Source: Escherichia coli
GTDB lineage: Bacteria > Pseudomonadota > Gammaproteobacteria > Enterobacterales > Enterobacteriaceae
Reading direction: 5' to 3' (one strand)
Assembly (NCBI RefSeq): GCF_030013205.1
Contig: NZ_CP122648.1
Length of the DNA: 64,000 nucleotides
In this document: in pieces, positions 12,733-15,408 of the stretch
Position numbering within the stretch: position 1 is the first letter of the stretch
How the letters are laid out: the number at the start of each line of letters is the position of its first letter
Notes under the pieces: model-generated
Told to the model about the DNA's origin: nothing
What the model saw: only the letters and a program-made list of their open reading frames with translations
Databases searched by the model: none
Program-made: the position numbers and the translations under genes

Positions 12733-12750
12733 ATCCTACATCTGTAAGAA
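12733..12750 (+). promoter_or_regulatory. Putative EvgA box upstream of ydeP
   Basis: ATCCTACA-TC-TGTAAGAA matches the EvgA inverted-repeat consensus TTCYTACA-NN-TGTARGAA. Confidence 0.5.
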
Positions 12751-12992
12751 AATCCGCGCACAATTGAAGCCAGAGTCTTATTTTTTATATTGAAAAATAT
12801 GTTAATTTAAACACTATGAGAGATGATGCTTAATTTATCGTATTTAATCTTTTGTTTAACGATAATAGATTAAAATAGAAAGAGAGTAGTCCCCTACTCT
12901 TATATATCCATGTTGACGATAATCCCTTTGTATATACTGTGCATCATCGCTATTACAAATCCTAATAATTCATTTCCACACAGGATAAGCAG

Positions 12993-15272
12993 ATGAAGAA
13001 AAAAATTGAATCCTACCAGGGAGCTGCCGGTGGTTGGGGTGCTGTTAAATCCGTAGCGAATGCAGTACGTAAGCAGATGGATATACGCCAGGATGTTATT
13101 GCCATGTTTGACATGAATAAGCCAGAGGGCTTTGACTGTCCGGGTTGTGCATGGCCAGATCCTAAGCACAGTGCGTCATTCGACATTTGTGAAAACGGCG
13201 CAAAAGCAATCGCCTGGGAAGTCACGGATAAGCAGGTAAATGCCTCTTTCTTTGCTGAGAATTCGGTTCAATCATTACTTACCTGGGGAGATCACGAGCT
13301 TGAGGCTGCGGGGCGTCTCACCCAGCCTTTGAAATATGATGCCGTCAGCGACTGTTACAAGCCATTAAGCTGGCAACAAGCTTTCGACGAAATTGGCGAA
13401 CGCCTTCAAAGCTATAGTGATCCCAATCAGGTTGAATTCTATACTTCGGGCCGCACTTCCAATGAAGCTGCCTTTCTTTATCAGCTTTTTGCCCGTGAAT
13501 ACGGGAGCAATAACTTCCCCGACTGCTCCAACATGTGCCATGAACCGACCAGTGTGGGTTTGGCAGCGAGTATCGGTGTAGGTAAAGGGACCGTGTTGCT
13601 GGAAGACTTTGAGAAATGCGATTTAGTCATTTGCATTGGGCATAACCCTGGTACAAACCACCCTCGCATGTTGACTTCGTTGCGCGCTTTAGTGAAACGG
13701 GGAGCGAAAATGATCGCCATCAATCCTCTACAGGAACGTGGCCTGGAGCGATTTACCGCACCGCAAAACCCGTTTGAAATGCTGACGAACTCTGAGACTC
13801 AGTTGGCCAGTGCCTACTACAACGTGCGCATTGGTGGTGATATGGCGTTGCTCAAGGGGATGATGCGCCTGTTAATTGAGCGCGATGATGCTGCAAGCGC
13901 CGCAGGTCGGCCCTCATTGCTGGATGACGAATTTATTCAAACGCATACCGTCGGCTTTGACGAGCTACGCCGTGACGTTCTCAATTCCGAGTGGAAAGAT
14001 ATCGAGCGTATTTCTGGACTAAGTCAGACTCAAATCGCCGAACTGGCTGATGCATATGCCGCTGCCGAACGCACCATTATCTGTTACGGAATGGGGATCA
14101 CTCAGCACGAACATGGTACCCAGAATGTACAGCAACTGGTCAATCTGCTGTTGATGAAAGGTAACATTGGCAAGCCTGGTGCGGGTATCTGCCCACTACG
14201 AGGTCACTCTAATGTACAGGGCGACCGAACCGTCGGTATCACCGAGAAACCGTCTGCAGAGTTTCTGGCTCGCCTGGGTGAGCGCTATGGTTTCACCCCA
14301 CCTCATGCACCTGGACATGCTGCAATTGCCAGCATGCAAGCAATATGTACGGGGCAGGCTCGAGCATTGATCTGCATGGGGGGCAACTTTGCGCTGGCAA
14401 TGCCAGATCGGGAAGCGAGCGCTGTACCGTTAACACAATTAGATCTGACGGTACACGTAGCCACTAAGCTTAACCGCTCTCATCTGCTGACCGCACGGCA
14501 TAGCTATATTCTGCCGGTTCTGGGACGCAGCGAGATTGACATGCAAAAAAGCGGTGCGCAGGCGGTAACCGTTGAGGATTCAATGTCGATGATTCATGCC
14601 TCGCGTGGCGTGTTAAAACCCGCCGGTGTAATGCTGAAATCAGAGTGTGCAGTGGTCGCGGGAATCGCGCAGGCAGCACTACCCCAGAGCGTGGTAGCCT
14701 GGGAGTATCTGGTGGAAGATTATGATCGCATTCGCAATGACATTGAAGCTGTGCTGCCAGAGTTCGCCGACTATAACCAGCGCATCCGTCATCCCGGTGG
14801 TTTTCACCTGATAAATGCAGCTGCTGAAAGGCGCTGGATGACGCCGTCAGGTAAGGCTAATTTCATTACCAGTAAAGGGCTGTTAGAAGATCCCTCTTCA
14901 GCGTTTAACAGTAAGCTAGTCATGGCGACAGTACGCAGTCACGATCAGTACAACACGACGATTTATGGTATGGATGATCGCTATCGAGGGGTATTCGGTC
15001 AACGAGATGTGGTCTTTATGAGTGCTAAACAAGCTAAAATTTGCCGTGTAAAAAACGGCGAAAGAGTTAATCTTATTGCGCTTACGCCAGACGGTAAGCG
15101 AAGCTCACGCCGCATGGATAGATTAAAAGTGGTCATTTACCCTATGGCTGACCGCTCACTGGTGACCTATTTTCCAGAATCGAATCACATGCTAACACTT
15201 GATAACCACGATCCATTAAGTGGCATTCCTGGCTATAAAAGTATTCCGGTTGAATTAGAACCATCAAATTAA
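12993..15272 (+). CDS. ydeP: Acid-resistance oxidoreductase YdeP (molybdopterin, formate-dehydrogenase-like, 759 aa)
   Basis: 759-aa ORF; N-terminal Cys-rich cluster; length and context match K-12 YdeP. Confidence 0.9.
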
Positions 15273-15285
15273 TTCGCCTCCTCAT

Positions 15286-15316
15286 TTCTTCTGCTGTCAT
15301 CCGCACAGCAGAAGAA
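15286..15316 (+). terminator. Hairpin downstream of ydeP
   Basis: 12-bp inverted repeat TTCTTCTGCTGT / ACAGCAGAAGAA with 7-nt loop just after the stop codon; weak T-tract. Confidence 0.35.
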
Positions 15317-15390
15317 TTCCTCATTGACCATTGTCGCGCAATTTACTCACATGTGCTAAATTAAACTGCTCGTTATAAGATATATACCTC

Positions 15391-15408
15391 CGCCTACAGC
15401 TGTAAGAA
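15391..15408 (+). promoter_or_regulatory. Putative EvgA box upstream of safA-ydeO
   Basis: CGCCTACA-GC-TGTAAGAA, same architecture as the ydeP site; similar downstream promoter sequence. Confidence 0.5.

Follow-up and report, generated by a model that had tools for sequence, protein, structure and literature searches.

EvgA-box promoters of ydeP and safA-ydeO in Escherichia coli and the sequence that they share downstream of the box

The acid-resistance genes ydeP and safA-ydeO form adjacent units on the chromosome of Escherichia coli, and their upstream regions raise the question of whether one regulator drives both units from two separate promoters, and why these promoters resemble each other over more than a binding site. 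The window analyzed here is a stretch of 64 kb of the E. coli chromosome that also contains gadB and gadC. Its plus strand carries ydeP (12993-15272), encoding a putative molybdopterin oxidoreductase of 759 aa involved in acid resistance, safA (15520-15717), encoding a small membrane connector of 65 aa by annotation that activates PhoQ (PMC9496106, bioRxiv 10.64898/2026.05.06.723403), and ydeO (15792-16553), which is located on the same transcript as safA and encodes an AraC-family protein of 253 aa that activates gadE (PMC4222967). The G+C content is about 51% in ydeP versus about 35% in safA-ydeO.

For the identification of regulator binding sites, the window was scanned with the 18-bp string TTCYTACA-N2-TGTARGAA (TTCYTACANNTGTARGAA), which we take to be the EvgA consensus and which reportedly goes back to Kato 2000, Masuda & Church 2002, and Itou 2009. 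As had been claimed in the original prediction, EvgA boxes are found upstream of both units, exactly at the positions given there. The ydeP box ATCCTACATCTGTAAGAA (12733-12750, plus strand) has one mismatch to the consensus and a perfect promoter-proximal half-site, and the safA-ydeO box CGCCTACAGCTGTAAGAA (15391-15408, plus strand) has two mismatches, while the K-12 allele of the latter (TGCC...) has one. Both boxes are intergenic and located directly upstream of a co-directional gene. At up to two mismatches, the consensus marks these 2 sites in 64 kb versus 0.07 expected, a number that was reached in no shuffle; at up to three mismatches it marks 2 versus 0.70 expected, and this count is not significant by itself. 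The sequence CCTACANNTGTAAGAA is present in two exact copies in the window, both on the plus strand (12735-12750 and 15393-15408), with 0.00 copies expected from 100 shuffles. The left half of the inverted repeat had been given as YCCTACA for both copies, which is correct for ydeP (T at 12734) but not for safA (G at 15392), and the two arms are not perfectly complementary: they pair at 6/8 positions in ydeP and at 5/8 in safA, with the mismatches falling on the outer two positions and the Y position.

The proposal that one regulator acts on both acid-resistance units is borne out by the literature, in which this regulator is EvgA. Binding of EvgA has been described for the promoter regions of both ydeP and safA (PMC8147483), direct binding to the safA-ydeO operon promoter is stated in PMC9496106 with reference to Itou 2009, and ydeP has been reported to be under direct EvgA regulation (PMC8174306). 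The ydeP promoter is acid-induced, and the suggested reporter experiment in an evgS-constitutive background has already been published for this promoter: constitutive evgS alleles switch it on, and the EvgS exchange H721Q abolishes its activity (PMC4283999). A ydeP-lacZ fusion is accordingly in use as the standard EvgS/EvgA reporter (PMC5573083), and the proteins YdeP, YdeO, EmrKY, and Frc increase together as the EvgA regulon (bioRxiv 10.64898/2026.05.06.723403). In the scheme established in the literature, the sensor kinase EvgS is activated by mild acid and phosphorylates the NarL-family regulator EvgA, which in turn activates ydeP and, separately, safA-ydeO; YdeO passes the signal on to gadE and the glutamate decarboxylase system, and SafA to PhoQ. 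Taken as a whole, the explanation that the two sites mark the EvgA-dependent promoters of this acid-resistance locus is very probable. What is recovered here from raw sequence alone, the upper level of the EvgS/EvgA > YdeO > GadE cascade together with the connection of SafA to PhoQ/PhoP, is already contained in databases and papers. EvgA control of ydeP and safA-ydeO is already established, and the sole addition of the present analysis is the likeness of the two promoters as duplicate cassettes, which is described below.

The boxes are followed by a promoter in the same register, as the distance from the box center to the downstream TG of a conserved extended -10 element is 58.5 bp in both copies. 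The ydeP element TGtTAATTT (12800-12808, plus strand) has no recognizable -35 and ends 7 nt upstream of position 12815, at which a 188-nt "5' leader" probe for ydeP starts, at -178 from the ATG (PMC11210196). Position 12815 is a probe boundary and not a stated mapping of the start site; relative to this leader start, the center of the ydeP box lies at about -73.5. The safA element TGtTATATT (15458-15466, plus strand) is kept in all 10 E. coli genomes examined and, as TGCTATATT, in L007, an Escherichia lineage that is 84% identical here and that was compared together with these 10 diverse genomes. The TG and hexamer positions 1, 2, 5, and 6 are identical in 6/6 ydeP and safA sequences compared, and in a wider sample strain UPEC-774U has a C at position 4 of the ydeP hexamer (TAACTT). 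By register with ydeP, transcription of safA is predicted to start near 15473 with a leader of about 47 nt. Judged from these elements, an EvgA dimer on the 18-bp inverted repeat, centered about 72-74 bp upstream of each start, would recruit RNA polymerase to a promoter consisting of the extended -10 TGnTAWWTT without a usable -35. A different promoter obtained in a consensus scan, TTGAAG-16-TATATT (12764-12791), was discarded as a candidate for the main promoter, since the safA copies do not keep its -10 (TCTATT, TCTTTT, CCTGTA), and it is also at odds with the leader start at -178.

The 5' leader of ydeP (12815-12992, plus strand) comprises about 178 nt, a length that is taken from PMC11210196. 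A conserved hairpin at 12883-12900 and a long-range pairing of 12819-12828 with 12941-12948 are indicated by an inverted repeat, by conservation, and by the fold of the leader, which has an energy of -37.1 kcal/mol (z = -2.4). No RNA family was found in the ydeP or safA leaders in an Rfam scan of the whole window. Two further coding candidates were discarded: a small ORF of 16 codons in the ydeP leader (ATGATGCTTAA...), in which L007 has a frame-breaking indel, and an in-frame ATG at 15484 that would extend safA to 77 aa, at which the K-12-type safA haplotype has ATT.

The region between the two units bears on the alternative that ydeP, safA, and ydeO form a single operon transcribed from the ydeP promoter, with the second box being redundant or a weak internal copy. 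The wording "ydeP-safA-ydeO" operon or circuit is found in PMC11052181 and PMC8147483, with a single operon given in PMC11052181. Immediately 3' of the ydeP stop codon, a hairpin with a 12-bp stem (15286-15316, plus strand; -17.5 kcal/mol, z = -4.1, with no shuffle folding as well) looks like a terminator that separates two transcription units, and in L007 its stem is kept with a reverse-complemented loop. Since the U tract after the hairpin is weak (UUCCUCAUU), some read-through from ydeP is plausible, which is in favor of a single operon. However, not only this strong conserved hairpin but also the conserved box and extended -10 of the safA copy itself speak for separate units, as do the direct EvgA binding at the safA-ydeO promoter mentioned above and the fact that a P_safA-gfp fusion is acid-induced on its own (bioRxiv 10.64898/2026.05.06.723403). 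In addition, the safA promoter is subject to PhoP repression and YdeO feedback (bioRxiv 10.64898/2026.05.06.723403), neither of which is reported for ydeP in the literature searched. A single operon is therefore considered very improbable compared with two EvgA-dependent promoters.

Both promoters belong to the known EvgA-box promoters, which comprise those of emrKY, evgAS, yfdX, frc, and yegR and in which the 18-bp TTCYTACA-N2-TGTARGAA likewise precedes an acid-induced gene. Within 63 kb of MG1655 DNA, the consensus at up to three mismatches marks emrK/evgA (TTCTTACGCCTGTAGGAT), frc (TTCTTACAACTGTAAGAA), yfdX with two sites, and yegR (TTCCTACATAAGTAGGAA), and this recovery serves as an indirect check of the consensus. 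The two remaining matches in these 63 kb have 2-3 mismatches and lie inside the coding sequences of ydeO and mdtE. There is no difference in kind between the ydeP and safA boxes and the other ones. In these two copies, the outer left arm is degenerate (AT and CG for TT), and the promoter-proximal arm is perfect.

BvgAS from Bordetella is the closest homolog of EvgAS. Like the BvgA promoters of fha and ptx, the promoters studied here have an inverted repeat of the heptad type (TTTCCTA-like) for a NarL/FixJ-family response regulator, well upstream of a promoter with a poor -35. BvgA promoters combine a primary site with secondary dimers that bind co-operatively at a spacing of 22 bp down to the -35. 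Convincing support for a comparable array of secondary EvgA sites was not obtained: at +22 bp from the ydeP box, CGCGCACAATTGAAGCCA has 7 mismatches and is a weak site, as 1.6% of the window positions do as well, and at +22 bp from the safA box there is no site with up to 8 mismatches. The relationship between BvgS and EvgS has also been noted in PMC8174306.

In contrast to every other EvgA-box promoter, those of ydeP and safA remain similar to each other for about 96 bases beyond the box. This similar downstream sequence had been part of the original prediction, and it turned out to be real and longer than implied. The ydeP copy (12735-12848, plus strand), which includes the box, the spacer, the extended -10, and the early leader with a length of ~35 nt, aligns without gaps with the safA copy (15393-15506, plus strand), which stops 14 nt short of the start codon of safA, at a register of +2658. 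Beyond the box, both copies agree at 61 of 98 bases (z ~7.8 against all 98-mers of the window). A background of 25.1 +/- 4.6 identities was obtained for the ydeP 98-mer over all 98-mers on the two strands of the window, with the safA copy being the best non-self match. The similarity is still present in L007 (53/98). The cassette pair was missed by a repeat finder at the thresholds used. In local alignments the ydeP-safA pair reaches z = 9.5 versus z <=2.2 for every other combination of two different EvgA promoters, so that the cassette similarity is confined to this pair among eight EvgA promoters. An architecture downstream of the box that is common to all EvgA promoters was not found, with frc and yfdX sharing only a short CTCTCTGATT block (z = 1.7).

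Within the cassette, conserved spacer blocks are located at about -49 to -32, namely TGAAG at 12766-12770 and AGTCTTATTT at 12774-12783 (plus strand). TGAAG, AGTC, and TATTT are invariant in 6/6 promoter sequences (the ydeP and safA promoters of the window, of K-12, and of L007), and the latter two blocks are separated by a single base, a T in ydeP and a C in safA. Together, the invariant blocks outside of the box are AAAnTCCGC, TGAAG, AGTCYTATTT, and GATGCTTAA in the leader, the last of which can pair with GCATCATC in the ydeP leader. The TGAAG and AGTCTTATTT blocks are absent from the other EvgA promoters.

Because no other EvgA promoter has it, the similarity after the box is not a general feature of EvgA promoters. 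It points to common descent of both promoters or to shared additional regulators, and not to EvgA binding as such. The similarity and its restriction to this pair suggest that the ydeP and safA promoters are a duplicated promoter cassette. The two copies appear to have been placed before modules of different composition, ydeP and safA-ydeO. The closest ydeP homologs outside of Escherichia are those from Edwardsiella (84-86% aa identity) and Hafnia (71% aa identity), and the regions upstream of these genes contain neither a box, with the best site having 5 mismatches, nor any similarity to the cassette. We tentatively regard it as possible, though somewhat doubtful, that one cassette of about 114 bp was duplicated within Escherichia over a distance of 2,658 bp. 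In that case, one event would have brought both a ydeP with its closest relatives in Edwardsiella and the AT-rich orphan module safA-ydeO under the control of one sensor, and the invariant blocks would represent frozen ancestry or binding sites of a further shared factor. Such a course would resemble the growth of regulons by duplication or capture of promoters before horizontally acquired genes, as adjacent units of differing composition have the same cassette and the nearest ydeP from outside of Escherichia is without it. If true, it would be a clean small case of regulon growth by promoter duplication. A search for YdeO across species returned 4 loci, in which the distribution over Escherichia species is thinly sampled. 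No description of a paralogy of the ydeP and safA promoters was found in the literature searched, a search that did not extend to the primary promoter papers.

The length of the shared sequence, which at about 114 bp is far beyond what a binding site needs, could also be taken to mean that the repeat is a mere relic of a tandem duplication with no present role, or that it is bound by another regulator such as RcsB, GadE, YdeO, or PhoP. For a relic, the pattern of conservation is unexpected, as no other part of the cassette is conserved across lineages as strictly as the box core and the -10, which stand out against the box spacer and the upstream flank. None of the 10 E. coli genomes has a change in the cores CCTACA and TGTAAGAA (positions 3-8 and 11-18); the ydeP box varies only at position 2 and in the 2-nt spacer, and changes in and around the boxes affect the spacer, the outer positions on the left, and the flank upstream. 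L007 retains both boxes, with an exchange of A to G at position 8 of the ydeP box as the sole core change. Moreover, identity of the ydeP-safA intergenic region is just 80-95% in most of 5,374 genomes, yet the box cores are kept in these 10 genomes. The half-site cores thus appear to be under purifying selection. Regarding other regulators, TAAGAAAnTCC may be read as loosely similar to an RcsB-type half-palindrome with a spacer that is one base too short, and PhoP and YdeO modulate the safA promoter as described above. However, neither ydeP nor safA is mentioned among the seven operons from YdeO ChIP-chip (PMC4222967), five unrelated promoters under EvgA regulation are marked by this 18-bp box, and the literature assigns the binding to EvgA. 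Both a relic and a different regulator are therefore regarded as extremely unlikely next to two functional EvgA-dependent promoters.

A natural deletion provides a further indication of what maintains the box. Escherichia sp. MOD1-EC7003 has lost ydeP-safA-ydeO by a deletion of 12791-16502, and among the sequences examined the TGTAAGAA half-site is mutated only in this strain (ATCCTACCCCCGTAAGAA); decay of the half-site only where the genes are deleted is a further argument against a relic. Finally, the safA leader occurs in two haplotypes, one of which is nearer to the ydeP copy, and gene conversion between the ydeP and safA copies may have taken place.

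The upstream regions of ydeP and safA-ydeO both carry the inverted repeat of the original prediction, which is confirmed with minor corrections at 12733-12750 (ATCCTACATCTGTAAGAA, plus strand, 243 bp 5' of the ydeP start codon) and at 15391-15408 (CGCCTACAGCTGTAAGAA, plus strand, 112 bp 5' of the safA start codon). The proposed left arm YCCTACA holds for the ydeP copy, in which a T precedes CCTACA, but the safA copy has a G at this position; likewise, the dyad is present but imperfect at the outer left positions. Relative to TTCYTACA-N2-TGTARGAA, which we take to be the EvgA consensus, the ydeP box has one mismatch and the safA box two. 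The 16-mer CCTACANNTGTAAGAA common to both boxes occurs exactly twice in the 64 kb (0 expected). With ≤2 mismatches, two sites are found in the window versus 0.07 expected, and no shuffled sequence gave two; with ≤3 mismatches, a score reached by just 0.003% of window positions, 0.70 sites are expected, so that the site count alone is not significant.

Gene coordinates were taken from the RefSeq annotation of one genome that is 100% identical at 12600-15800 and collinear with the window, and place ydeQ at 11746-12660, ydeP at 12993-15272, safA at 15520-15717, and ydeO at 15792-16553, all on the plus strand. Several swine isolates share 100% identity over 12600-15800, and the ydeP-safA region is found in 5,389 of 5,426 complete E. 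coli genomes.

Scanning with the EvgA consensus, in the window as well as in 63 kb of MG1655 sequence surrounding further published EvgA targets (≤3 mismatches), gave the anticipated outcome. In MG1655, the ydeP and safA boxes in their K-12 form were recovered together with a perfect match in the frc promoter (TTCTTACAACTGTAAGAA), two sites upstream of yfdX, one upstream of yegR (TTCCTACATAAGTAGGAA), and one in the emrK/evgA intergenic region (TTCTTACGCCTGTAGGAT). The only remaining matches lie within coding sequence, one in ydeO and one in mdtE. Reviews also give gadE as an EvgA target (PMC8147483); its upstream region in MG1655 has no site at ≤5 mismatches.

That one regulator, EvgA, drives both acid-resistance units is directly supported by published work. 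Reporter studies have shown that the ydeP promoter is turned on by constitutive evgS alleles, as predicted, and that both its acid induction and its constitutive-evgS activity are lost in EvgS H721Q (PMC4283999); ydeP-lacZ is a routine EvgS reporter (PMC5573083). A PsafA-gfp fusion is induced by acid and is also repressed by PhoP, with feedback from YdeO (bioRxiv 10.64898/2026.05.06.723403). YdeO itself could be considered as the factor acting at the two boxes, which is argued against by the YdeO ChIP-chip study, as neither ydeP nor safA is named in that paper with its seven target operons (PMC4222967). The interpretation of both regions as EvgA-box promoters is thus supported and agrees with what was known before.

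Sequence variation between ydeP and safA is unusually high: the majority of 5,374 genomes match the window there at just 80-95% identity. In a sample of ten genomes (eight diverse E. coli genomes, MG1655, and the window), neither promoter shows any change at box positions 3-8 or 11-18; the variable sites lie in the outer left part of the box, in its 2-nt spacer, and in the flank upstream of it. The E. coli-labelled SCPM-O-B-8794 locus (L007) has only 84% identity across the locus, yet both boxes and both -10 elements are kept, with a single core change in the ydeP box (position 8, A to G); 5' of either box, L007 has diverged in sequence and carries indels. In Escherichia sp. MOD1-EC7003 (L008), a deletion corresponding to window 12791-16502 has removed ydeP, safA, and most of ydeO, so that at 5960-6060 a ydeP promoter stub runs directly into the ~50 bp that remain of the ydeO 3' end. 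The relic box, ATCCTACCCCCGTAAGAA, has two core mutations, and among the sequences examined the TGTAAGAA half-site is mutated only here. Conservation of the boxes and decay after gene loss are the pattern expected of a site under selection while the genes it serves exist.

Similarity of the two promoters beyond the boxes, also predicted, is borne out by a gap-free alignment of 12735-12848 to 15393-15506. In the 98 bases after the box, 61 are identical (background 25.1 ± 4.6); the corresponding values are 57/98 in K-12 and 53/98 in L007. When the ydeP 98-mer is compared with the whole window, its top match other than itself is the safA copy. Blocks that do not vary among the six sequences (ydeP and safA of the window, K-12, and L007) include AAAnT, CGC, TGAAG, AGTC, and TATTT, as well as the extended -10 and a portion of the early leader. 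Among eight MG1655 EvgA-box promoters, only the ydeP/safA pair is similar past the box (z = 9.5); all remaining pairs of different promoters have z ≤2.2, and the two directions of the common emrK/evgA box 3.8. The extra similarity is therefore not required for EvgA activation. When the conserved spacer was examined for a BvgA-style secondary EvgA site 22 bp downstream, ydeP gave a weak candidate (7 mismatches) and safA none. One short block, AAATG-N-CG...CTCTCTGATT, recurs about equally far from the boxes of the frc and yfdX promoters (MG1655 DNA, L003 15400-15530 and 16400-16520), with a score that is not significant (z = 1.7).

Judged from sequence, the simplest reading is that the two promoters share common descent, one cassette having been duplicated 2,658 bp apart. 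This would fit the different base composition of ydeP (48-54% G+C) versus safA-ydeO (33-39%) and the confinement of ydeO matches to four loci, all Escherichia-like, of a one-genome-per-species collection. It would also fit the ydeP genes of Edwardsiella (84-86% amino acid identity) and Hafnia (71%), which encode the nearest YdeP relatives beyond Escherichia, stand in unrelated gene contexts, and have neither a box (best site 5 mismatches) nor cassette similarity upstream. In Edwardsiella (L020-L022), ydeP is flanked on one side by moaABCDE plus a Bax1-I family gene and on the other by nrdAB-yfaE. Its YdeP identity is high given the taxonomic distance, which suggests that ydeP may have moved horizontally between the Escherichia and Edwardsiella lineages. 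The safA leader (15479-15506) has two E. coli haplotypes, GATGCTTAACGTCATTCGTTTAAT (window, UPEC-774U, Rb-50) and GATTTTTAACGTTATCCGCTAAAT (K-12, EDL933, ATCC 8739); the former resembles the ydeP leader copy more closely and has an in-frame ATG at 15484, which gives a 77-aa ORF. The two cassette copies may have exchanged sequence by gene conversion. No description of the ~114-bp paralogy was found in the literature searched, the likeliest papers lying outside that search; together with its absence from non-Escherichia ydeP, it represents a modest, possibly known, evolutionary footnote.

Extended -10 elements conserved in all lineages compared are located at 12800-12808 (TGtTAATTT, ydeP) and 15458-15466 (TGtTATATT, safA; TGC... 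in L007), both on the plus strand, and neither has a plausible -35 element 16-18 bp upstream. The ydeP promoter TTGAAG-16-TATATT from a consensus scan was discarded, as its -10 is not kept in the safA copies. A published ydeP leader probe, not bound by CsrA, begins at 12815, 7 nt past the TAATTT hexamer (PMC11210196). With this probe boundary as start, the ydeP box is centred at about -73.5, or at about -71.5 from the A at 12813. The register shared with ydeP would put the safA start close to 15473 and make its leader about 47 nt long. The ydeP leader (12815-12992, about 178 nt) is highly conserved, with a predicted fold z-score of -2.4, a predicted hairpin at 12883-12900, and a predicted long-range stem between GAGAUGAUGC (12819-12828) and GCAUCAUC (12941-12948), whose 5' arm falls within the segment common to the safA leader.

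The locus has been called a single ydeP-safA-ydeO operon in one paper (PMC11052181). A hairpin 3' of the ydeP stop codon (15286-15316; 12-bp stem, -17.5 kcal/mol, z = -4.1) supports two transcription units instead; its U tract, however, is weak, so that read-through could occur. In L007 (about 5498-5529), the 12-bp stem is kept, and the loop is the reverse complement of that in the window (CATCCGC vs ACGGATG), as if the tip had flipped.

Upstream of ydeP, an intact fimbrial operon (6298-12660) comprises a fimA-like gene, a chaperone gene, an 883-aa usher (7976-10627), ydeS, ydeR, and ydeQ. In K-12 the usher is represented by no more than a 382-aa fragment (ydeT), after which come the yneL pseudogene and hipA; ydeS, ydeR, and ydeQ are all missing from L007. 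Downstream, gadB and gadC, on which the EvgA-YdeO-GadE cascade ultimately acts, lie at about 28200-31300, ~12 kb 3' of ydeO. The window scan found no EvgA box (≤3 mismatches) in their vicinity, which would be consistent with indirect control by EvgA. Their coordinates are those of the reference genome plus 768 because of an inserted 768-bp IS1 element (21261-22028, insA/insB on the minus strand) with the 8-bp target duplication AGTATTCG on either side. It breaks the ABC-transporter gene yddA, of which a 381-aa ORF remains (20137-21282); yddA is intact in the otherwise near-identical genome CFSAN018748. The sole Rfam match in the window is a selenocysteine insertion element (SECIS_3, 84 bits) at 51843-51901 on the minus strand, within fdnG, encoding the formate dehydrogenase-N alpha subunit.
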